DNA of 64,000 bases, taken from NCBI GenBank assembly GCA_035556495.1, contig DATMEW010000123.1, positions 11,137 through 75,136 on the forward strand, given 5' to 3'. The DNA is from Xanthobacteraceae bacterium. Lineage in GTDB: Bacteria; Pseudomonadota; Alphaproteobacteria; Rhizobiales; Xanthobacteraceae. Below, in pieces: positions 2,531 through 52,452 of the stretch (positions are counted from its first letter, which is position 1; every line of letters begins with the position of its first letter). Both the position numbers and the translations under genes were made by a program. Under the pieces are notes generated by a model. It was given only the letters and a program-made list of their open reading frames with translations, did not search any database and was not told where the DNA came from.

Positions 2531-3748
2531 ATGAAAGTCTTTGTGTTCGATCTTCTGCCCTATGGAGAACATCTGGATGCGCTGGAAACCGGCTCCGCGC
2601 TGCCGTATCCGCTCGGTGGCTCGTATTTTAAATCCGATGTGGCGGTGCGGACTTATGCGGAGCATCTGGAGGCATGGGAAGCCCTCGACCGGTACGGCTA
2701 TGACGGCGTCGGCTTCAACGAGCACCACACCTCGCCCTATGGTCTGATGAATTCGCCGAACCTGATGGCGGCTGCCGCATCGCAGCGCACGAAGAACCTG
2801 TCGCTGTTGATTTACGGTAACCTGTTGCCGCTGCATCAGCCGCTGCGCCTCGCCGAAGAACTGGCGATGATCGACTGCCTCTCCAACGGGCGGCTGATCG
2901 CGGGCGTCGCGCGCGGCATTCCGCGCGAATATGCGGTGCACAGCATCCCGATGTCGGAATCCCGCGCGCGTTTCGAGGAAGCCTATGACATTCTCGTCGG
3001 CGCCTGGACGCAGGAGGTGTTTTCCTACGAGGGCAAGTTTCACAGCTACAGGGATATTTCGCTGTGGCCGCGTCCTGTGCAGCAGCCGCATCCGCCGATC
3101 TGGACGCCGATCACCGGCAGCAAGGAATCCATCGAATTCGCTGGCCTGAAGAACATGCCCATCACGCCGGGCGAGAGCACGGCGAGCGTCGCGGGCTTGC
3201 AGCAGGACATCATCCGCTACTATGCGAAATGTCTGGCGCAGGCCGGGCACAGGATGACCACGGGCCATCTCAGCATCGCCCAAAGCGCCTATATCGCCGA
3301 CAGCAAGGCGCAGGCCGTGCGCGAGGCGGGGCCTTATCTGCTGTATTTCAATCGCACCCTGTTCAGCCATGGCAACGTGACGGAGACGGCGTTGCAGCGC
3401 CAGACCGGTTACATGAGCGCGGCGTCCCATGACTATGTGCGGCCGGAGAATCTGCCGCAGGCCGCGCGCCTGCGCGAGAATTTCCGCAACATGACCATGG
3501 CGGATGTCGAGCGCCGTGCCGAGGACATGGCCTGGGGCACGCCGGACGAGGTCGCCGAGCGCATCATCGAGGCGGCGGACCGTGCCGGCGCGGAGACGGT
3601 TCATGTGCGCATGAACACCGGGGCCATGCCCCATGAGATGTTCATGGAGCAGATCCGCCGCTTCGCGGAACAAGTGCTGCCGCGGCTTCAGGCCCACAAG
3701 GTCAAGCTTGCGCCGGTGGTCGAGGAAGCGATCGCGGAAACGGTGTAG
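2531..3748 (+). CDS. LLM-class (luciferase-like) flavin-dependent oxidoreductase
   Basis: Motifs FNEHHTSPYG, LAEELAMIDCLSNGRLIAGVARG; SD GGGGGAA upstream of the ATG. Confidence 0.8.
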   Translation: MKVFVFDLLPYGEHLDALETGSALPYPLGGSYFKSDVAVRTYAEHLEAWEALDRYGYDGVGFNEHHTSPYGLMNSPNLMAAAASQRTKNLSLLIYGNLLPLHQPLRLAEELAMIDCLSNGRLIAGVARGIPREYAVHSIPMSESRARFEEAYDILVGAWTQEVFSYEGKFHSYRDISLWPRPVQQPHPPIWTPITGSKESIEFAGLKNMPITPGESTASVAGLQQDIIRYYAKCLAQAGHRMTTGHLSIAQSAYIADSKAQAVREAGPYLLYFNRTLFSHGNVTETALQRQTGYMSAASHDYVRPENLPQAARLRENFRNMTMADVERRAEDMAWGTPDEVAERIIEAADRAGAETVHVRMNTGAMPHEMFMEQIRRFAEQVLPRLQAHKVKLAPVVEEAIAETV

Positions 3749-3960
3749 TCAACACGGCGCGCCGGAAGGCAGGCTGGCCGGCGTTGGGCAGTTCGGGCGG
3801 GCGCGGTCGATGCGTCCGCCGGCACGCCTGCCGGTATGTCTCATGATGAGCAGGCGCGCCGTGGCGATATCGATCGATGCACGTTCATTCGGTCAGACCT
3901 GATGCTTGTCCGCATGAGTCCGCCTGGACGATGAGAGGTTGTCGCCAGGGCTTTTCCCCA

Positions 3961-3987
3961 CCCCCGGCTCAAGTCGGGGGGCTTTTT
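3961..3987 (+). terminator. Intrinsic terminator (plus-strand sense only)
   Basis: CCCCCG-N8-CGGGGG stem followed by GCTTTTTC. Confidence 0.45.
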
Positions 3988-3999
3988 CGGGATCGTGCT

Positions 4000-4464
4000 C
4001 TAGATCGTCGGTGCGACGATGAGGTCCGTTGTCGTCGCGCCCGTGCGGCGCTGGATCTCTTCGGCGATCCATTGCCGGTGGCAATGATGAGCGTCGCGCT
4101 CGTAGCAGAGCAGGCAGACCCGCCGGCCGGACCGCACGATGGATTCCAGTTCATCCATCTGTTCACGGGCCTGCGGCGTTTTCAGGTGCGCCGCGTAGAT
4201 ATGGAACAGCTCGTCCATTTTGCCGGCCCGCGCCGCAAGCCGGCCGTCCTTCGGCGTGCCGAGGCCGCGCAGGTGCAGATAGCCGATGCCTTGGGTGTCG
4301 AGTTCGGCGGCGAGCTGGCGCTTGGAGAAGCCGGGGCGGCGCGAGGCGGCAATCGCGCGGACATCCACCAGCAGATCGATTTTCGCGGCCGAGACTTCGT
4401 CGAGAAACGGCGCGGGCGGCGTCTTCTCGTAGCCGATGGTAAAAAGGCGGGGCTTCTTTGCCAT
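4000..4464 (-). CDS. DUF488 family protein
   Basis: Start MAKKPRLFTIGYE at 4464. Typical DUF488 motifs LVDVR...SRRPGFSK and LLCYERDAHHCHR. The track ORF's N-terminal extension runs into a repeat element. Confidence 0.75.
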   Translation of the reverse strand: MAKKPRLFTIGYEKTPPAPFLDEVSAAKIDLLVDVRAIAASRRPGFSKRQLAAELDTQGIGYLHLRGLGTPKDGRLAARAGKMDELFHIYAAHLKTPQAREQMDELESIVRSGRRVCLLCYERDAHHCHRQWIAEEIQRRTGATTTDLIVAPTI

Positions 4465-4631
4465 GGCCGGATGATAGGCCCGGTCCTCCTGCGCCAGAAG
4501 CGCGCGGATCGCAGGGCGGCTATCGAAGTTTGGCAGGGATGGCCGGAAAATCCGGCGGATCATGCGGAAAAAGTCAGGCCGGGCAGAGCCCGGCCTGATG
4601 AGTTCTGATCTGCTGGGCGGCGGACTTCCTG

Positions 4632-4678
4632 GAGCATGATCCTGAAAAGTGGAAACCGGTTTTCGGATCAGATCATGC
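4632..4678. repeat. REP/MITE-like imperfect palindrome (GAGCATGATC...GATCATGCTC), copy 1
   Basis: The 47-nt core matches the reverse complement of 41610-41656 with 4 mismatches (hand alignment). Confidence 0.75.
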
Positions 4679-4710
4679 TCGAACAAGAACTTTAGAAGTC
4701 CATGCCGCCA

Positions 4711-4736
4711 CTGAAGCCGGCTGTTGCCGGCTTCAG
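4711..4736 (-). terminator. Hairpin downstream of groEL (putative groESL terminator, no clear U-tract)
   Basis: Perfect 11-bp stem CTGAAGCCGGC-TGTT-GCCGGCTTCAG. Confidence 0.45.
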
Positions 4737-4766
4737 CATTTCAGGTTCGCTTGGGCGGCGGACTTC

Positions 4767-6428
<1,662 letters not shown>

Positions 6429-43015: not shown

Positions 43016-43090
43016 TGGTGCCGGATGAGGGGATTGAACCCCCGACCTTCGGTTTACAAAACCGCTGCTCTACCGCTGAGCTAATCCGGC
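43016..43090 (-). tRNA. tRNA-Thr (anticodon TGT), encoded CCA
   Basis: Hand-folded: GCCGGAT acceptor, GCTC/GAGC D-stem, anticodon loop TTTGTAA, T-arm GGGGG-TTCAATC-CCCTC. Confidence 0.9.
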
Positions 43091-45264: not shown

Positions 45265-46038
45265 TCAGGCCAGAATTTCTTGGCTAATCTTCCACGCCAT
45301 TCTCTCGTAAAAAGGCATATCGTAATGCAATGACGCCTCACCCCATGGGGCGTCAGGACTCGTCCACGTCACATCACCAAAGGCACAGATGTGCGAACTG
45401 CTAATCTCGGACTTATAACGCTTGAGCGCTCTCTGGTAATGATCCCTGTAGAAGCCCGAGTATACTTCGGCGCCCAAATACGCCTTCGCATCCTGCATAG
45501 TCCCGCCACGTACCGAAATTGCAGTAGGCGGACAGTCCAAAAGGATAACCTTCGCATGAGGCTGATGGCTGGCGATGATGCCAGACAGACTCTTAAGCCC
45601 ACGGCCGAACGCCCTCGAATATAGCCTGTCACCAGGTTGGATCCGTTTAAACCGCTTCTCCAGAAGCCTTCGAAGGTCTGGCTTATCGTGGAGTTCCACG
45701 CCAATCGAGAGAAGCTTCCCATCCAACATAATCAGGGACGGATAACTGTCTCGCCAGAAGTCGATGATTATAGCATCGAAGTCAGTGTTAGTTAATGTTT
45801 GCGTGAAGCGCCCAGATGCCTCGTATCTCATGCGCTTCAACACGTCGTCGTGTTCTTCGACGGCGCTATAAGCATCTCCGAGCGCGGAAGCAAGATCAGA
45901 CCCATTAAACTGGGAAAGGGGGTCAAACATCGCGGTAGGAATGCGATAAATTTGTCCTGCCTGGGTGGCTCCAGGTAACTTGAGCGTCACATGTTGAGCA
46001 TTGCACCCGCCGATGAATAACGCTGTCTTCAACATCAT
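45265..46038 (-). CDS. Hypothetical protein, low-G+C moron (alpha/beta fold suspected, DUF6270/SGNH-like at best)
   Basis: Clean 257-aa ORF of non-shadow composition, bracketed by an AT-rich leader and a terminator; motifs LFIGGCN, AIIIDFWRD, KVILLDCPP. Confidence 0.6.
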   Translation of the reverse strand: MMLKTALFIGGCNAQHVTLKLPGATQAGQIYRIPTAMFDPLSQFNGSDLASALGDAYSAVEEHDDVLKRMRYEASGRFTQTLTNTDFDAIIIDFWRDSYPSLIMLDGKLLSIGVELHDKPDLRRLLEKRFKRIQPGDRLYSRAFGRGLKSLSGIIASHQPHAKVILLDCPPTAISVRGGTMQDAKAYLGAEVYSGFYRDHYQRALKRYKSEISSSHICAFGDVTWTSPDAPWGEASLHYDMPFYERMAWKISQEILA

Positions 46039-46313: not shown

Positions 46314-48239
46314 TCACTCGATTTCATAGGTTATGTCCATATACGCAAGTTGGTCGTCACCACTAAACGGATACGACGTATCATCGCGGGTGATGTACGC
46401 TTTGTTATCGCCACCAACAAGCAGCGCACGCAAAGAAGCGCCAGTTACTCTTACCTCAATGCCGTTTCGAGAGAAGGTGCCGTTTTTTGGGGTGAACGGA
46501 AGCGTTGCCATCAGATAACCGGAGGCTGTTCCGACTGACGCGCTGTCGATCTCGAGATGAACAGTGACCCATTTGCCGATTTTCTTATATCGCGCAGCGG
46601 CGACGGTCAGGGTGCCCGGCGTGCCGCTCCCGACACTCAACGTTGGAGTCCACGTCCTCGTCCACTCAGAGGACTCGAAAACGGTGAGCTGTCCTCCGGA
46701 ACTGTCGAGGATGTCGGCCGTACAGCCTTCAAATTCTGGGTCGAATACTTGGATGTCCTGTGCACCGCTTGCGACGCGTAGACCGAATTCAGGGGCGACG
46801 CCCGGCCCTTTGCGAACTCGCAAAGTCATAATCCGTGCATGGGAATAATCCTCAAGGACATCCACGCCGCCAGAGCCGTCGTTGTTCTCGTTGAGGCTTA
46901 TCGCGTCTCGGAGGTTCACTTCCCACGAGCCGGCGCCAGCATTGCTCCGGAGAATAACAGGCCGTTCCGTTCCGTTCGTCCCGTCGATATTAAGTTTTGA
47001 TAGGGCGATCTGGTCGATGCCTAGATCCGCTCCGATCTTGCAGTCGTTTACAAACCGGAAGTCGAAGGACAATGCGCCAGCGACACCGTTGTAATCCTCC
47101 GGCTGCGTGATCTTCAGCCCGGTTCCGAGAGGACAGCTGTCTAGATACACGCCGTCCATATAGATGGCCGTGATCTGGTGGTCCTGGGCTTCACCATCGA
47201 ACGCTTTAGCAGGATCAATCAGAATGATTTCATCTCGGCACATGCCGAAATGGCCGCCTGATTCCCACCAAATGCCGTCAGCGCATGTGATCCAGATATT
47301 CTTGGATAAACGCCCGTTGATCTGTTGCCCTCGCCACTCGGAAAGACCGAAGTGGATTTCGGAGGGGATAATCCCTCCGAGAGTACCGCCTGCCCGGAAT
47401 GGAGATTTCTCGATTTTCAGTAAGTACGAGTTGGCGCGGTATTCAGCGAACGCCGCGTCCGAAGCCATCTGGAACTGTGTGAACTCGTGACCGCCACCGC
47501 CGATAAGCGTCATACAGGCGTAATGGGCGTACAGGCCGACGTTATGAACTTTGGCAGCGAAGACATCATGGAGAACGAGTGCGCGCCCTGTGTTTGTGTC
47601 CGCTGTCGCGTAGATGTTGAAATCGCGGAGGTCGATTGCACCAACGTTGTGCTGGTTTTCCTCCGGTGAGAAATTCAGAAAGTCTCCTTGATCGTTGCTG
47701 TCGATCAAGAAATATGTCGTACCCGTTCCTCTGATCTGAGTGTGGTCTTGACGAAACACAGGAAATGCTCCGGGGGACGCAACCCGAATACTCCCCGGCA
47801 AATCAAATACCAGCGACTTTTTGCCAAGCAGAGCTGCCTTAGCGCACATATTCGAGATGCGCAGCTGATTATCAGTGATACTGTCGTCAACAACGTCATA
47901 GTCGCTGGCGCGAATTTCGTCGGACCATCGCTGTTCATTTGAGCGGCGGACTGTCCCATCATTAACCGCGAACTTTCCCAGCGCGGCCACATCCTTGAGC
48001 GCAATGGAAGTGCTCTCGTCGCTCGGCGTGACGTTGGCGGCGCCGACCACGTTATCAACCGTGTCCCACGCAGTTTCGTAGTCAGAACTTGTCTGCTTGC
48101 GGAGAATGGTGCCCGCTGCGCCGCCAGTGGCGACGCCAGCGCCTGTAGCGCCGGCCGGGCCATCAGCGCCGACTGGCCCACGCAGGAAATAGGACAAGCT
48201 GATAGCTGCCCCGCCCGAGGGCTGGCTGAATCGAAGCAT
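46314..48239 (-). CDS. Tailspike / receptor-binding depolymerase (pectate-lyase-type beta-helix)
   Basis: N-terminal collagen-like GPVGADGPAGATGAG. IRASDYDVVDDSITDNQLRISNMCAKAALLGKKSLVFDLPGS resembles the Pectate_lyase_3 N-terminus. Long beta-rich body. Confidence 0.7.
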   Translation of the reverse strand: MLRFSQPSGGAAISLSYFLRGPVGADGPAGATGAGVATGGAAGTILRKQTSSDYETAWDTVDNVVGAANVTPSDESTSIALKDVAALGKFAVNDGTVRRSNEQRWSDEIRASDYDVVDDSITDNQLRISNMCAKAALLGKKSLVFDLPGSIRVASPGAFPVFRQDHTQIRGTGTTYFLIDSNDQGDFLNFSPEENQHNVGAIDLRDFNIYATADTNTGRALVLHDVFAAKVHNVGLYAHYACMTLIGGGGHEFTQFQMASDAAFAEYRANSYLLKIEKSPFRAGGTLGGIIPSEIHFGLSEWRGQQINGRLSKNIWITCADGIWWESGGHFGMCRDEIILIDPAKAFDGEAQDHQITAIYMDGVYLDSCPLGTGLKITQPEDYNGVAGALSFDFRFVNDCKIGADLGIDQIALSKLNIDGTNGTERPVILRSNAGAGSWEVNLRDAISLNENNDGSGGVDVLEDYSHARIMTLRVRKGPGVAPEFGLRVASGAQDIQVFDPEFEGCTADILDSSGGQLTVFESSEWTRTWTPTLSVGSGTPGTLTVAAARYKKIGKWVTVHLEIDSASVGTASGYLMATLPFTPKNGTFSRNGIEVRVTGASLRALLVGGDNKAYITRDDTSYPFSGDDQLAYMDITYEIE

Positions 48240-48254
48240 GGCGATGTCTCTGAG

Positions 48255-48638
48255 TTAGAAGGCGACCGGGTTCGGCCGGAAGGTCACGACGCCGTGCGCC
48301 CACGCGGTCACGACGCCGTTTGCGTCCTCTGAGGCGAGGTCGCAGACGTAATCGCCGCGCAGGTTGATGGGCGGATGGACCATGATATTCAGGACGCAGG
48401 GATTGCCGTCGTCATCGTCACCGATGGACAGGCTTCCATCGTCCGTGGAGAGGGTGAGGCTGGGACTGGTTGCACCGTCGCAGGCGCGGAAGGTCATCCG
48501 GAAGGAAAGGCCGGTGAGGTCTGTCGGCACACCCGCCGCGCTGAAATAGATGGCGGAGGACCACGTTGCATTCGCGGCAATCTCGCCGCTGACTTCCATC
48601 AGCGCGCCGCCGCTGCCATATCCGGAGCGGGCCAGCAT
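48255..48638 (-). CDS. Hypothetical phage protein (beta-rich, tail-associated by position)
   Basis: Position between the tail fibre and tailspike genes; its start overlaps the stop of the upstream gene. Confidence 0.45.
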   Translation of the reverse strand: MLARSGYGSGGALMEVSGEIAANATWSSAIYFSAAGVPTDLTGLSFRMTFRACDGATSPSLTLSTDDGSLSIGDDDDGNPCVLNIMVHPPINLRGDYVCDLASEDANGVVTAWAHGVVTFRPNPVAF

Positions 48639-49600
48639 CAGCGGTCACCCCACACGGCCACGGTGATATAGTCCGTGCCGCTATCGGAGACGCCGGTTCC
48701 GGGATTCTGAATCTCGAACCTGACAGTCGTGGTGGTCAGCGCCTTGACATAGATCGTGCGGGTGGAGGTCGCGGAAGATTGATATCCGAGAACAACCGGG
48801 AACACTACCGTGGACATTGCGTTCGTCAGCGTCAGCGTCAGGTCGCCGGTCGAGTTCTTGACCAACCCAGAAAAGCCGAATTGCTGCTCGATGGTATAGG
48901 TGCCGTTGGACGTATTCTTGATAAGCGCCCAAGCCTTCGGGACGGCGGGGTGGTGGATCATCATCGCCGGGGGAACGAACGTGTCGTTATCGGTCGCGGC
49001 CTCCATGATGGCTTGATCGGCCTTCTGGCCGGTTGTCATCACGTCCTGCCATTCGCCGTCCTCGTAGCCCTCGAAGCGGTCATTGTCCGTGTTGTATCGG
49101 AGCTTGCCATCATCGGGACTGCCGGGGCGCTGCGCCGTGGTGCCAGCGCCGATCTGGGTGCCGGCCGGTCCGACCAGCAGGCCGGTGACGTTGGCGACCT
49201 CTCCGGCCAGCCCGTTGACCTCGCCCTGAGAGGGCACGCCCAGATTGGTCCGGGCCGTCCCGGCGTCCGTGGCCCCGGTGCCGCCGAATGGAATGCCGAG
49301 GGCGCCCGCACCGAGGGGAATGCCGGGGTCAATGTCGTCGCCGCTGTAATCCGCCAAGGACGAGCCGTCCGCCTTTTTGGCGACGATCTTGTAGGAGGCT
49401 GGCGCGATATATCGCTTGGGACAGACGCCGGAAGTAGAAATCACGATGGGGTTCGCGGCCGGAACTGCCAAATCAGCGTCTGAGAACAGCGCGAGCGGCG
49501 TTGTCGTCTGGGCCGCGTAGATGTAGAGTTTCGCCCCAGCGAGCGGCAAGCCGTTTTCATCAACGACCGGCAAGAGCGAATTACGGATGAGCACTGCCAT
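48638..49600 (-). CDS. Tail fibre protein
   Basis: N-terminal DENGLPLAGAKLYIYAAQTTTPLALFSD and IPFGGTGATDAGTARTNLGV motifs, common in phage fibres. Confidence 0.6.
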   Translation of the reverse strand: MAVLIRNSLLPVVDENGLPLAGAKLYIYAAQTTTPLALFSDADLAVPAANPIVISTSGVCPKRYIAPASYKIVAKKADGSSLADYSGDDIDPGIPLGAGALGIPFGGTGATDAGTARTNLGVPSQGEVNGLAGEVANVTGLLVGPAGTQIGAGTTAQRPGSPDDGKLRYNTDNDRFEGYEDGEWQDVMTTGQKADQAIMEAATDNDTFVPPAMMIHHPAVPKAWALIKNTSNGTYTIEQQFGFSGLVKNSTGDLTLTLTNAMSTVVFPVVLGYQSSATSTRTIYVKALTTTTVRFEIQNPGTGVSDSGTDYITVAVWGDR

Positions 49601-49612
49601 TACGGGCGGACC

Positions 49613-49644
49613 TCAAAAGAAAAGGCCGCCGGGCTGGCGACCTT
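49613..49644 (-). terminator. Intrinsic terminator (minus-strand sense) between the opposite-strand cassette and the tail-fibre gene
   Basis: Minus-strand AAGGTCGCC-AGCCC-GGCGGCCTT (one mismatch) followed by TTCTTTTG. Confidence 0.5.
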
Positions 49645-49705
49645 GTTAGTTCTCGACTCTAGGTTGTGAGGTGCGGTACCCTCCCTGAATTGTGGGAGGG
49701 GCGCG

Positions 49706-49999
49706 ATGTCGAAATATGTGGTGAGCTACGATCTGCGGCGCGAAGTCACTTCAACGGACTGGTATCGACTACACGAGACGTTAAAAACCGCCGTCGATTA
49801 CTGCTGGCCGCTCCAGTCAATCTGGATTATTGAAACACCGAGGACCCCAGCTGACATCATAGGGGTCCTTCGCTCGCAAGGCGTCATTGATGATAACGAC
49901 GGCATCATCGTTCTTGAGATCACGGGGAAAGGGGCTTTCCGGAGGGTCGCCAGCCAGGAAACGGCCAACTGGCTTGCCCAGCACCTTTACCAAGTCTGA
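49706..49999 (+). CDS. Stand-alone Cas2/VapD-like ferredoxin-fold small protein (hypothetical)
   Basis: GGGAGGG SD 5 nt upstream; by-eye alignment to the Cas2 consensus (YVVSYDL / PLQSIWIIE / DDNDGIIVLEI). Confidence 0.5.
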   Translation: MSKYVVSYDLRREVTSTDWYRLHETLKTAVDYCWPLQSIWIIETPRTPADIIGVLRSQGVIDDNDGIIVLEITGKGAFRRVASQETANWLAQHLYQV

Positions 50000-50052
50000 C
50001 ATTGACGTGTTCCTTATGAAAAGGCCGCCCAGAAGGACGGCCTTGGAAATAG

Positions 50053-50292
50053 TTGGAGAGCGAATTGACAACCTTTGAGATTGCCCTTTTGAGCATTTCG
50101 GCGGGTATTCTTATCGCGTTGTTAGTTGTGGTCTGGCTTCTTCTGGAAATCCATCACTTGATACGCGTCTGGATGCTGGATTGGGGGAAGAACCCTATGT
50201 ACGCCACCGGAAGCGAGTTGCGAGAGGTCAAGGATGAACTCTCTCGCGCTGCCGATTATATGAGAGTCTGGAAGCGCGAATCCTATGACTGA
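50053..50292 (+). CDS. Small single-pass membrane protein
   Basis: TM segment IALLSISAGILIALLVVVWLLL; TTG start (50053 or 50065). Confidence 0.45.
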   Translation: MESELTTFEIALLSISAGILIALLVVVWLLLEIHHLIRVWMLDWGKNPMYATGSELREVKDELSRAADYMRVWKRESYD

Positions 50293-50533
50293 CCTTCCTC
50301 GTTGGGCATTCTGGCTGGCGAATGCCAGCGTCATAGTTCTCATCTATCTTTTTGCCCAAGTGGCCAATGCCGCCGGATGGCAAATCAGCCTCGGATTCGG
50401 TGTCGGGGCTTTGTATATGTTCTGCCTTTTCCGTTGGCACTACGGCTGGTGGCCGGACTTCAATATGGACGGTGAGGACGACGCCAATTCCCAGCTTCCC
50501 CGCATAGACCCCGACCGCACCAACTATCGCTGA
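50285..50533 (+). CDS. Small two-TM membrane protein with acidic C-terminal tail
   Basis: WAFWLANASVIVLIYLFAQV and ISLGFGVGALYMFCLF hydrophobic segments; 8-nt overlap with the upstream ORF. Confidence 0.45.
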   Translation: MTDLPRWAFWLANASVIVLIYLFAQVANAAGWQISLGFGVGALYMFCLFRWHYGWWPDFNMDGEDDANSQLPRIDPDRTNYR

Positions 50534-52452
50534 TCATTCAGCAGATAGGAGTTCGCCCCGGCGATGGCGGCGGCGTCTCTAGTTGGTCGTGCAGCAACCG
50601 ACGCCTGCCGGCGGCCAACGGCCTCAATTGCGCGGGTAAGCTCCTTCATCGAATCCGGATTTGTCAGCAGTTCTCCGAGAACCTCGTCCGACCTGGACCG
50701 AAGAGTGTCGCGGATTTTCTTCGGAACCGTACCGATTGCCCGCCGCAGCAGGCTAACCGGCGGCGCTCCTGAGAACGCATCCATAATGAGGTCGCCAGCG
50801 ATCCCATCTGCGTCCTGACGTTCAGCGAGACGACGCGCTGTAGCAGAGTTGCCCAGTGCACGACTGGTCAATTCGGAAGAAGTCACCTCGAAGTTGAGTC
50901 TGTCCGCCCATTTGGCCGCTGCCGCCTCGTCCGGCATGATAGCGGCAACCTTCGACCTCATCTCGGGCGAGCGGAAATACTTGGTCATATCCCCCAGCTT
51001 CGCCGGGTCATTGCCCATCTTGCCAAGCATGGATGAGACAGCGCCTATGCGGAAAGCCTCCCGTTCAGCCTCAGGCATATGTTGCAAGGCCGCCCGAAGC
51101 TCCTCCGCACCTATCTTGGTATCGAAGATTCTGCGACCTTCCTCCACCGCGTCCAAATATCTGGATGGACCAGCCCAAGCATCACGAGCCTTCGCATAGG
51201 CCGGATTATGTTGATCGACGACGCCGATTAGGTCATCACGCATTGCGGAGAGGACGCGCGACTGATTAGCATTCCCCTTGCGTACGGCTTCTCCAACTAT
51301 ACCGTCTACCTGCTTCTTCCACGCGTCGATCTGGACCATGAGAGGCGCGTTTCTAACGTCTGCAATCCCATATTCGGTCTGTAGAGTTCTTCGGAAATCG
51401 GGGCTGCGTAGAACATGCTGGCCCCAGCCAGTGCTGGTGATCCGGTTCCAAACCTGCTCGATTTCTGGGGCGGTTCGAGCATTGAAGTTGAAGGCTTCAT
51501 CATAGAGGGGACGGGCAGCTTTCGCCCTTTCTGCCATAGTTTCCTGAATGGCCTGATGTGCAGTCTTGCTGGTGCCCGTCAGTTGGCGTAGGTCAGTGCT
51601 CAAGCGCGCCATCTGTCCCTGCTGACGACCTGTCAGGGCAGGGACCACAATAGTCCGGCCGGCGCCGGGCGTCTGAGCGACCCGTTCAACGAGCCCACGG
51701 ACGTTCTCGCCGCCAGCATCGGCCAGCGCCGCAACACCGGGGCGGGTCGCTTGCAAACCCTGCGTGCGAGCCATAAGAGCCGCCGGAGTGTCAGCGTCCC
51801 GCATAATTGCCCGACCGAGGTCGGCGGCTACATTTGCGCGCGGGGATATAGCTCCGCGAACAGCGTTTGCCGTCGCGCCGACACCTCGTGCTAGACCGGG
51901 GACGATTGCACCAACGGCTAATCCAGTGGCCCCGCCTTCTAACGCTCCTTGGGCGCGACCGCCGGGGTTCGCTTCGCCGGCTCCATAGGTTGCGCCGCCC
52001 CCAGCGCCACCCAGCATCATCCGGGCGACGGTAGGTAGCTTGGAGATGCCAGTTGCTGCGGCGGCTGCGCCAGTTGCAGGTAGAGCCGCCAGCGTTCCGG
52101 CAACAGCCCCGCCAATCTCGCCGGGCACCTTGATAGCTGTGGGGATCTGCTGGTCGCGGCGCTTTTCAGCGGCGAGGTTTTCCTCGTAGGTCCCGTTGCC
52201 GGCAAGCTCATTCGCCTTGGCTGATAGTTCATCAGCCCACCCGAATGTCATTCCAGAAGCCAGAGAACGAACCGCATCGTCTACATAGCCAAGAACGCCC
52301 TTGGACTGCTGCGGCACCGGGCGCCAGTCCTTGCCATCGAAGGCCAACATTTCCTTGGTCTGGGGATTAACGGCGGTTTTGGCCTTCTGCCAATTGCCGT
52401 CATCACTGAGAAACATCGTTTCCCCGGTTTGGTCATTGACTGCGATAGGCAT
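50524..52452 (-). CDS. Large internal virion/ejection protein (hypothetical)
   Basis: Position after the LT-domain protein, as for P22 gp20/gp16; Ala/Gly-rich hydrophobic stretch near the N-terminus. Confidence 0.5.
   Translation of the reverse strand: MPIAVNDQTGETMFLSDDGNWQKAKTAVNPQTKEMLAFDGKDWRPVPQQSKGVLGYVDDAVRSLASGMTFGWADELSAKANELAGNGTYEENLAAEKRRDQQIPTAIKVPGEIGGAVAGTLAALPATGAAAAATGISKLPTVARMMLGGAGGGATYGAGEANPGGRAQGALEGGATGLAVGAIVPGLARGVGATANAVRGAISPRANVAADLGRAIMRDADTPAALMARTQGLQATRPGVAALADAGGENVRGLVERVAQTPGAGRTIVVPALTGRQQGQMARLSTDLRQLTGTSKTAHQAIQETMAERAKAARPLYDEAFNFNARTAPEIEQVWNRITSTGWGQHVLRSPDFRRTLQTEYGIADVRNAPLMVQIDAWKKQVDGIVGEAVRKGNANQSRVLSAMRDDLIGVVDQHNPAYAKARDAWAGPSRYLDAVEEGRRIFDTKIGAEELRAALQHMPEAEREAFRIGAVSSMLGKMGNDPAKLGDMTKYFRSPEMRSKVAAIMPDEAAAAKWADRLNFEVTSSELTSRALGNSATARRLAERQDADGIAGDLIMDAFSGAPPVSLLRRAIGTVPKKIRDTLRSRSDEVLGELLTNPDSMKELTRAIEAVGRRQASVAARPTRDAAAIAGANSYLLNDQR

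Follow-up and report, generated by a model that had tools for sequence, protein, structure and literature searches.

Locus and gene

The DNA analysed here (the window) is a stretch of 64,000 nucleotides from a Xanthobacteraceae bacterium (assembly GCA_035556495.1, contig DATMEW010000123.1, positions 11,137 to 75,136). From approximately 43.1 kb to the window end, beside a tRNA-Thr gene (43016-43090), the minus strand carries the late region of a podovirus-like prophage, with genes for a terminase, a P22-type portal, a scaffold, a major head protein, Hc3, ejection/internal virion proteins, tail fibres and a GH108 endolysin. A plus-strand islet lies between a tail-fibre and an ejection-type gene of this region and consists of two small hydrophobic open reading frames (ORFs) and the gene studied here, a solo gene of the Cas2 superfamily (49706..49999, plus strand). 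The gene starts with ATG and encodes a protein of 97 aa, with a translation exactly as quoted in a first-pass annotation of the sequence. That annotation had described a stand-alone Cas2/VapD-like protein in a prophage; the late-gene set on the minus strand confirmed the prophage location.

A word-indexed search of 5.8 billion proteins yielded 71 homologs with 50-85% identity, nearly all of 97 aa; the named hosts were Alphaproteobacteria, for example Ancylobacter, Parvibaculum and Paracoccus. The protein was covered over its full length by phrog_1090 (E 3e-13), a family with unassigned function. Compared with an 80%-identical copy in another prophage-type locus (L001), the dN/dS ratio was 0.12, and it was 0.10-0.30 in the other computable pairs. 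The window gene is thus intact, real and under purifying selection. A profile built from 42 close homologs and run without a word index against 1.84 billion representative proteins found at least 765 relatives at E<=1e-3, mostly of approximately 90 aa. Across 125 aligned family sequences (mean column identity 30%), residues Y8, D9, L10, Y19, S38, W40, D65 and W89 were near-invariant. D9, which aligns with the Cas2 aspartate, was conserved at 90% or more in both the close (A1) and the broad (A2) family profiles.

Sequence relationship to Cas2

The window protein was not recognized by Cas2 models, neither in Pfam at E<=10 nor in NCBIfam. Its sole Pfam line, HECW_N (E 0.073), was taken as a chance match. 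With phmmer against all PDB chains, the top match was Cas2 of S. pyogenes (4qr0, residues 5-83, E 0.018). Among the 125 profile relatives, 34 individually matched PF09827 (CRISPR_Cas2) at E<=0.01, with a best E of 7.5e-7, and no other Pfam family recurred. The profile of these 125 sequences placed the Cas2 chains 7mi4 and 4es1 first in the PDB. As a canonical reference set, five Cas2 genes were taken from beside cas1 in genomes carrying a family member, and hhalign aligned the family to them over 67 columns (Prob 88%, E 3e-6). In this register, YDL corresponds to YDV, S38 to the serine of QYSVF and D65 to the aspartate of DHDS. Additionally, the nearest cluster in the ESM Atlas carries the automatic name Cas2 domain protein.

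The five Cas2-like elements aligned by eye in the first-pass annotation were placed correctly: phmmer and hhalign gave the same register, and the strands and helices of the AlphaFold model agreed with it. In both profile and structure searches, proteins of the Cas2 superfamily came first, and no unrelated family matched better. The reading as a stand-alone Cas2/VapD-fold protein therefore held at the superfamily level, but the nearest structure was BPSL1038 rather than VapD, and curated Cas2 models failed. The window protein belongs to a branch of its own within the Cas2 superfamily and most resembles BPSL1038 in shape. It is not Cas2 sensu stricto, and membership in VapD was not demonstrable.

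Five proteins of 180-220 aa (L041, L043, L046, L050 and L051) have a GYF_2 domain (PF14237) at the N-terminus, and their C-terminal region matches positions ~15-85 of the family profile, with the YD segment of strand 1 missing. They may represent a separate fused family.

Predicted structure and structural neighbours

An AlphaFold model based on a deep alignment had a predicted local distance difference test score (pLDDT) of 93.7 and a predicted template modelling score (pTM) of 0.83. The modelled elements were b1 (residues 2-9), a1 (16-27), b2 (31-36), b3 (39-44), a2 (48-57), b4 (66-71) and an extra helix (84-93). This b1-a1-b2-b3-a2-b4-a3 topology is a ferredoxin-like b-a-b-b-a-b core followed by a C-terminal helix. 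In a Foldseek search of the PDB, the first 28 rows were almost all Cas2 (best E 8e-4), and no convincing viral structure match was found in BFVD. In VIA, BPSL1038 (7vxr) ranked first, with Z 10.8, a root-mean-square deviation (rmsd) of 2.3, 85 of 86 residues aligned and TM scores of 0.69/0.77. Cas2 chains followed with Z 8.0-9.3 (rmsd 2.2-3.0, 76-87 residues aligned; nine chains at Z 8.6-9.3), ahead of the VapD structures 3ui3 (Z 7.5), 6zn8 (Z 7.4) and 9kan (Z 7.1) and of GhoS (2llz, Z 7.4). The ACT-like protein 2nyi had topped a wide VIA search for a first model (pLDDT 83.8), which was superseded by the refolded one. The Cas2-superfamily fold predicted in the first-pass annotation was thus recovered, and we count the structural match because it agrees with the sequence-profile evidence.

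BPSL1038 of Burkholderia pseudomallei, a host without CRISPR, has been shown experimentally to be an endonuclease of double-stranded DNA in vitro, and it was placed in a 'Cas2/VapD nuclease sub-family' (Commun Biol 2023; PMC10491678). The window protein resembles it in the b-a-b-b-a-b-a topology with the extra C-terminal helix, a length of approximately 90 aa, its solo occurrence in a CRISPR-less host, and the combination of an aspartate ending b1 with a hydroxyl residue on the b2-b3 turn. D9 and S38 sit at active-site positions of Cas2 and BPSL1038 (PMC10491678). Both proteins nevertheless differ: sequence similarity was not detectable (9% identity when structurally aligned; 7vxr was absent from the phmmer and profile matches at E<=10), and the BPSL1038 motif is D11(X20)SST, whereas the window family has D9-X28-S38 with the serine within L-Q-S and no SST triplet. 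The window family also occurs on prophages, IS1595 elements and plasmids, and no such context is reported for BPSL1038 (PMC10491678).

With Cas2 (PF09827, PF09707, TIGR01573), the window protein shares the fold and the register of the Y-D, Q-x-S-x-F/W and D-S/G motifs, but it has a C-terminal helix in place of the final strand and tail of Cas2. VapD proteins (VapXD, VapD-VapW) have in common with it a solo Cas2 fold, carriage by plasmids or mobile DNA and the b1 aspartate; they differ in the lower structural score and in their antitoxin genes, since no adjacent VapX- or VapW-like gene was present at 31 family loci. GhoS, the type V antitoxin of GhoST, likewise has a Cas2-like fold, and its arrangement is comparable to phage loci of the family, in which the gene stands ahead of small membrane-protein ORFs.

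Independence from CRISPR-Cas

The window contained no family of CRISPR-like repeats, and the repeat search and Pfam scans agreed with the first-pass annotation that cas1, other cas genes and a repeat array are absent from it. Neither Cas1 nor Cas2 was found with Pfam models in the host assembly (98.7% complete, 178 contigs; Cas2 model at E<=1); a check of the host for CRISPR-Cas had been proposed in that annotation. In a sample of 401 genomes from the class of the host, 33 carried a family member, always as a single copy. Cas1 was present in 8 of 32 carriers and 89 of 368 non-carriers (25% vs 24%). This tally and the IS1595 tally given below record presence or absence only and include one genome each that is flagged as unpublished (G040 and G240, respectively, both non-carriers). 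None of 16 strong family copies was near cas1. Five carriers that have CRISPR-Cas showed a canonical Cas2 beside Cas1 in a Pfam search, while the family member was located elsewhere in the genome and was not seen by Pfam. Thus, unlike Cas2, the family was never beside cas1 or an array, and carriers with CRISPR keep a separate canonical Cas2. The window gene is not part of a CRISPR-Cas system, and its function is probably CRISPR-independent.

These data bear on a proposal of the first-pass annotation, that the protein could be a decoy interfering with CRISPR adaptation. In this anti-CRISPR role, it would imitate Cas2, capture the Cas1 of the host and so keep spacers from being acquired against the carrier element. 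The fold match to Cas2 and the carriage by mobile elements only, which would gain from such an activity, fit this proposal, and solo Cas4 in phages is a precedent for hijacked adaptation proteins. The proposal was left unsupported, since the host lacks Cas1 and Cas2 and the Cas1 frequency is the same in carriers and non-carriers. The protein ends in a helix that contains an invariant tryptophan, unlike the Cas1-binding tail of Cas2, and a pure decoy would not need the conserved catalytic-site residues. With CRISPR-less hosts and no association with Cas1, a decoy role is very improbable.

One ORF of genome G245 was considered as a true Cas2 near Cas1 and was withdrawn, because it had no Pfam Cas2 call, lacked the b1 YD segment and had no array nearby. 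Its locus (L078, G245:C22) contains a Cas1-like gene (3555-5789; Pfam Cas1 E 5e-42), of which the genome has two copies. No CRISPR array was present within 12 kb of this gene, and the genome lacks a canonical Cas2. Three genes downstream, a 134-aa ORF matched the family profile weakly (E 6e-9), with no Pfam Cas2 match. The locus is possibly a cas1-solo element.

The cargo slot of the prophage

The slot is flanked on both sides by minus-strand late genes. To the left lies a tail-fibre-like gene (48638..49600) with PHROG tail-fibre matches, followed by a minus-strand terminator-like hairpin (49622..49644; GGTCGCCAGCCCGGCGGCC and then a T-run) that forms the left border. A plus-strand leader hairpin (49679..49700; CCCTCCC-tgaattgt-GGGAGGG) precedes the Cas2-like gene, with the Shine-Dalgarno sequence as its 3' arm, 5 nt ahead of the start codon. 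The right border is a hairpin (50021..50046; GGCCG-N10-CGGCC) that separates the Cas2-like gene from TM1, a 79-aa plus-strand ORF with one hydrophobic segment and no family match (50053..50292). TM2 (50285..50533, plus strand), which encodes 82 aa and has two hydrophobic segments, shares its first 8 nt with the end of TM1, stop codon included. The right flank is the minus-strand gene of an internal virion/ejection-type protein (50524..52452; phrog_5880). No sigma-70-type promoter for the slot gene was found in a promoter/terminator scan.

A viral contig of a sister phage (L079) was 84-90% identical to the window in nucleotide sequence on both sides of the slot, and homology broke at window positions 49659 and 50291. 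Amino acid identity was 94% for the tail-fibre-like protein and 92% for the ejection-type protein. The left hairpin was identical, and 31 nt of the right hairpin were 97% identical and adjoined the TM2 homolog (67% amino acid identity). Between these same two hairpins, an unrelated 92-aa ORF replaced the Cas2-like gene; TM1 was missing and TM2 was kept. The Cas2-like gene alone therefore fills a replaceable moron slot, with TM1 as a second insertion and TM2 as part of the backbone. The window gene is an autonomous single-gene moron: it varies between close phages, is flanked by hairpins and lies on the strand opposite to the late operon.

We take the slot to be equivalent to the sieA/immI moron site of P22. 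Like the morons at that site, the window gene is opposite-strand cargo between ejection-protein and tail genes, with a presence that varies among near-identical phages; it differs in that the cargo is a Cas2-superfamily protein. Four other loci (L001, L019, L022 and L013) carry a family gene at the same junction of tail-fibre and ejection genes, followed by unrelated small ORFs with two transmembrane (TM) segments, and a phrog_5880-type ejection gene also adjoins the family gene in L001 and L013. One or two such small two-TM ORFs follow the Cas2-like gene on the same strand in 5/5 podovirus-type loci. BLAST comparisons of these TM ORFs between phage loci revealed no homology.

The first-pass annotation had placed the gene next to membrane proteins. 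In the window this held only by a crude hydrophobic-window test (50053-50292 and 50285-50533; uncharged stretches of 18-19 residues), and the link is not obligate, as the sister phage has TM2 without a Cas2-like gene. These observations bear on a possible antitoxin or regulator resembling GhoS, an RNase with the Cas2 fold that would keep the mRNA of the downstream small membrane proteins in check. Although the shared fold (Z 7.4) and the same-strand ORFs at all five loci are in line with such a role, the TM ORFs are unrelated in sequence, the conserved border hairpin sits between the Cas2-like gene and TM1, and copies on insertion sequences (IS) and plasmids have no such membrane ORF. A GhoS-type pairing is weakened by the occurrence of TM2 alone in the sister phage, and we consider it highly unlikely.

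The leader hairpin of the window gene was predicted by folding with a pair probability of 1.00, burying the ribosome-binding site. Hairpins pairing Shine-Dalgarno and anti-Shine-Dalgarno segments, with differing sequences, precede most close relatives. The leader hairpin is suggestive of a translational brake.

Outside the slot, the minus-strand gene of a 641-aa tail-fibre-like protein (46314-48239) had no PHROG or Pfam match, and only a short N-terminal piece of it is kept in the sister phage. The receptor-binding end of this protein appears to have been swapped between both phages. A DUF6270 protein is encoded just beyond it (45265-46038, minus strand).

Carriage by IS1595 elements and plasmids

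Genomic context was analysed in a set of 38 loci, 22 obtained by a pattern scan and 16 from the genome sample. All-against-all clustering of the neighbouring genes revealed a sole recurrent neighbour, a transposase of the IS1595 family with DDE_Tnp_IS1595 and zinc-ribbon domains. In a pooled Pfam scan this transposase accounted for 8 of the 120 nearest neighbours at 31 loci; the rest were assorted housekeeping and regulatory genes, and no conserved antitoxin-like or cas partner was among them.

Eight units of 2.4-3.1 kb bounded by inverted repeats (IRs) were delimited (L003, L005, L006, L007, L010, L012, L064 and L069). Their terminal IRs have the common core TTATATAC, and six of the eight are flanked by target-site duplications of 6-8 bp (TTTGCTTT, TTTATTTT, ACGTGCTG, ATTATTTT, ATCCATTA and at least GCGAAT). 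Two gene orders were observed, IR-Cas2like(+)-x-Tnp(-)-IR and IR-Tnp-Cas2like-x-IR, and the third ORF (x) varies between elements. In units of type A, the Cas2-like gene begins 60-80 nt from the IR.

IS-linked copies made up 11 of ~34 genomic loci and belonged to at least five lineages outside the clade of the window gene. Conversely, ~5 of ~300 IS1595 transposase copies in the 401 genomes had a Cas2-like gene. By chance, an estimated ~0.02 of 16 copies would be adjacent to an IS1595 transposase, given the IS1595 counts. From the IS-linked frequency compared with this expectation, the Cas2-like gene emerges as a passenger that is optional yet strongly preferred in some IS1595 lineages. IS1595 was present in 17 of 32 carriers and 91 of 368 non-carriers. 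In the family tree, the window gene grouped with L001 (support 99/93) inside a clade (97/99) that contains six close IS copies; as the tree is unrooted, it does not show whether the gene passed from phage to IS or the reverse.

The IS1595 family includes passenger-carrying ('transporter') insertion sequences, reportedly described by Siguier, Gagnevin and Chandler in 2009. The units of the relatives agree with them in their terminal IRs, target-site duplications, transposase with DDE_Tnp_IS1595 and zinc ribbon, and extra ORFs. The window copy differs from them: IS ends were not found at it with up to 7 mismatches allowed, and no transposase is nearby. No description of the window family or of a Cas2-like IS passenger was found in the searchable literature.

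Several features of the IS units were observed in passing. A gene of 50-60 aa, convergent with the Cas2-like gene, is present on the minus strand of L010 (6080-6232), L012 (6329-6490), L003 (6327-6506) and L058 (6496-6666). It encodes the motif F-K/I-E-A-A-R-E-L-G-x-D-E-D-E-x-x-W/F-E and is limited to four type-A units with the transposase on the opposite strand, and its conservation at the DNA level exceeds that of the Cas2-like gene. A co-passenger of L012 (6459-7217, plus strand) encodes a DUF3800 protein matching phrog_3732 and the PADLOC candidate PDC-M04A (E 3e-20). The units of L012 (~5870-5890), L003 (~5905-5927) and L010 (~5670-5688) are inserted directly in a T-run that follows a GC-rich hairpin (as in CACCGGGGCCCTTTTGCTTT|IR), which suggests that IS1595 units prefer intrinsic terminators or T-rich targets. 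The only IS1595-family transposase of the window's host lies on a short contig of its own (L024, G000:C162, 2675 bp), as for a collapsed repeat, and has no Cas2-like gene with it.

Distant copies, with approximately 30-34% identity, were found on 4.8-kb ColE1-type plasmids. Other plasmid copies are located in islands beside WYL, entry-exclusion, Abi, type I restriction-modification and NucS genes. The ColE1-type plasmid pSZECL_e (L070, 4863 bp) and about 25 plasmids of the same size from Klebsiella, Enterobacter, Citrobacter and E. coli have as cargo a 95-aa family member, a 432-aa 'ATP-binding protein' and a 145-aa hypothetical protein; the Cas2-like ORF is unannotated in many of these records.

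Two alternatives turn on this mobility. The protein could act as a VapD-type toxin and, together with an antidote that went unrecognized (an RNA, a tiny peptide or the product of a distant gene), form a toxin-antitoxin or addiction module that stabilizes the prophage, IS or plasmid. VapD toxins are classically plasmid-borne (PMC8987985); the family is carried by plasmids, IS elements and prophages, shares the VapD fold (Z 7.1-7.5) and has, in the window, a tight translational leader that is typical of toxic genes. Set against these similarities, no protein partner was conserved among the 120 neighbours, the gene was swapped cleanly as a single gene in the sister phage, and type-A units leave no room upstream of it. 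An accompanying small RNA was likewise not found, with no Rfam match in the window cassette, and the one conserved downstream stretch is the small protein gene of four type-A units. VapD also ranks below Cas2 and BPSL1038 structurally. A classical toxin-antitoxin module is disfavoured because of the missing conserved partner and the clean single-gene swap, and it retains a small share of our confidence.

Alternatively, a DNA-binding dimer resembling Cas2 could be an accessory of IS1595 transposition that aids the DDE transposase, much as Cas2 serves as a scaffold for Cas1, with phage and plasmid copies as IS leftovers. The transposase is the only recurrent neighbour, IS1595 is twice as frequent in carriers, and both IS architectures, as well as deep branches (L064 and L069), have retained the gene while other cargo varies. 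Its rarity among IS1595 copies, the host's only IS1595 included, and the intact copies under purifying selection without transposase or IS ends (the window, L001, L013 and plasmids) weaken this explanation, which we regard as improbable.

Proposed function

We take as established, with high confidence, that the gene is real, that the protein has superfamily homology and the fold, that a CRISPR context is absent and that the gene is mobile. The function proposed from these data is that of a solo Cas2-superfamily protein probably acting as a DNA-binding or DNA-cutting dimer, encoded by one-gene cargo that serves inter-element conflict or persistence. We give this reading as a whole an even chance.

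In the proposed mechanism, the protein would be made at a low level, with its ribosome-binding site sequestered in the leader hairpin, and would work as a homodimer. The dimer would bind DNA and probably cut it through a paired Asp/Ser site, D9/S38. The two positions of the Cas2/BPSL1038 active site are kept, with D9 ending strand 1 (Y-D-L) and S38 on the b2-b3 turn, as is the invariant D65 before strand 4. The carrier may benefit in conflicts among mobile elements, for example if incoming DNA is excluded or damaged, or its persistence may be aided.

Natural proteins of the family include two with tandem domains (P0092 and P0201) and one with three domains (P0104); P0092 has lost the YD motif in its first repeat. 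The tandem-domain proteins fit a dimeric working unit like that of Cas2. The match of P0080 was rejected as spurious and repetitive. The C-terminal end of P0104 is a ComEA-type helix-hairpin-helix DNA-binding domain (2duy, E 2e-4; 8dfk, E 1e-3), a fusion that points to DNA as the substrate, as does the cleavage of double-stranded DNA by BPSL1038, the nearest structure. A role in conflict is in line with the plasmid copies beside Abi, entry-exclusion, WYL and type I restriction-modification genes and with the IS co-passenger that matches PDC-M04A.

A number of observations weigh against this proposal. The helix-hairpin-helix fusion is a single example. The close-family profile A1 alone gave no significant match (E 0.88 for Cas2 in the PDB; 3.5% with hhalign against canonical Cas2), and the link to Cas2 by profile required the broad profile A2. 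Generic ferredoxin-like folds (ACT, HMA and S6) also reached Z 7-8, which makes the structural argument modest by itself. The isoelectric point of 5.6 is mildly acidic, unusual in a nucleic-acid enzyme. The family was not represented in a PADLOC search, and tblastn of 50,697 isolated phage genomes recovered no copy of it. Three plasmids, with copies of ~30-34% identity, account for the defence-type neighbourhoods. Pairing of the Shine-Dalgarno hairpins exceeded that of shuffled sequences overall (combined p about 1e-5), but the statistic is based on mononucleotide shuffles of related loci, and control sequences paired often too. Finally, nuclease activity is what we infer from the fold and two conserved residues, and these are not proof of catalysis.

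Some of these points are also consistent with a non-catalytic protein on a Cas2 scaffold, such as a small regulator, that binds nucleic acids or a ligand. Ferredoxin-like folds have many binding roles, the protein is acidic, and the nuclease activity of Cas2 itself is dispensable in adaptation (PMC8987985). Y8, D9, S38 and D65, near-invariant over 125 sequences, are exactly the Cas2 active-site positions, which argues against this explanation; it seems unlikely to us, to about the same degree as the VapD-type toxin.

Implications for the family and for Cas2

Solo Cas2-fold proteins (VapD, GhoS and BPSL1038) and passenger-carrying IS1595 elements are already known. The family described here is uncharacterized and absent from Pfam, NCBIfam and PADLOC, and it moves as a single gene regardless of host CRISPR. 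Cas2 is universal in CRISPR adaptation, yet its conserved nuclease site has no known purpose. A VapD-like toxin brought together with a transposase has been proposed as its ancestor (PMC8987985), an idea with few extant examples behind it.

A bolder possibility, to which we assign a low probability, is that DDE (IS1595) transposons have repeatedly, and under selection, carried Cas2-like genes as passengers whose products take part in the DNA transactions of the element. If so, the protein would be a DNA-end-binding dimer beside the transposase or a nuclease favouring the element, and the phage copy would be a captured derivative. Such elements would be present-day counterparts of the 'transposon plus Cas2-like toxin' partnership from which CRISPR adaptation has been proposed to originate.

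With only 97 residues, the window protein lends itself to simple assays either way. Nuclease activity together with a phenotype in exclusion or defence would add a one-gene conflict module, whereas action with the IS1595 transposase would provide an experimental handle on the cooperation of a Cas2-type protein with a DNA integrase outside CRISPR.

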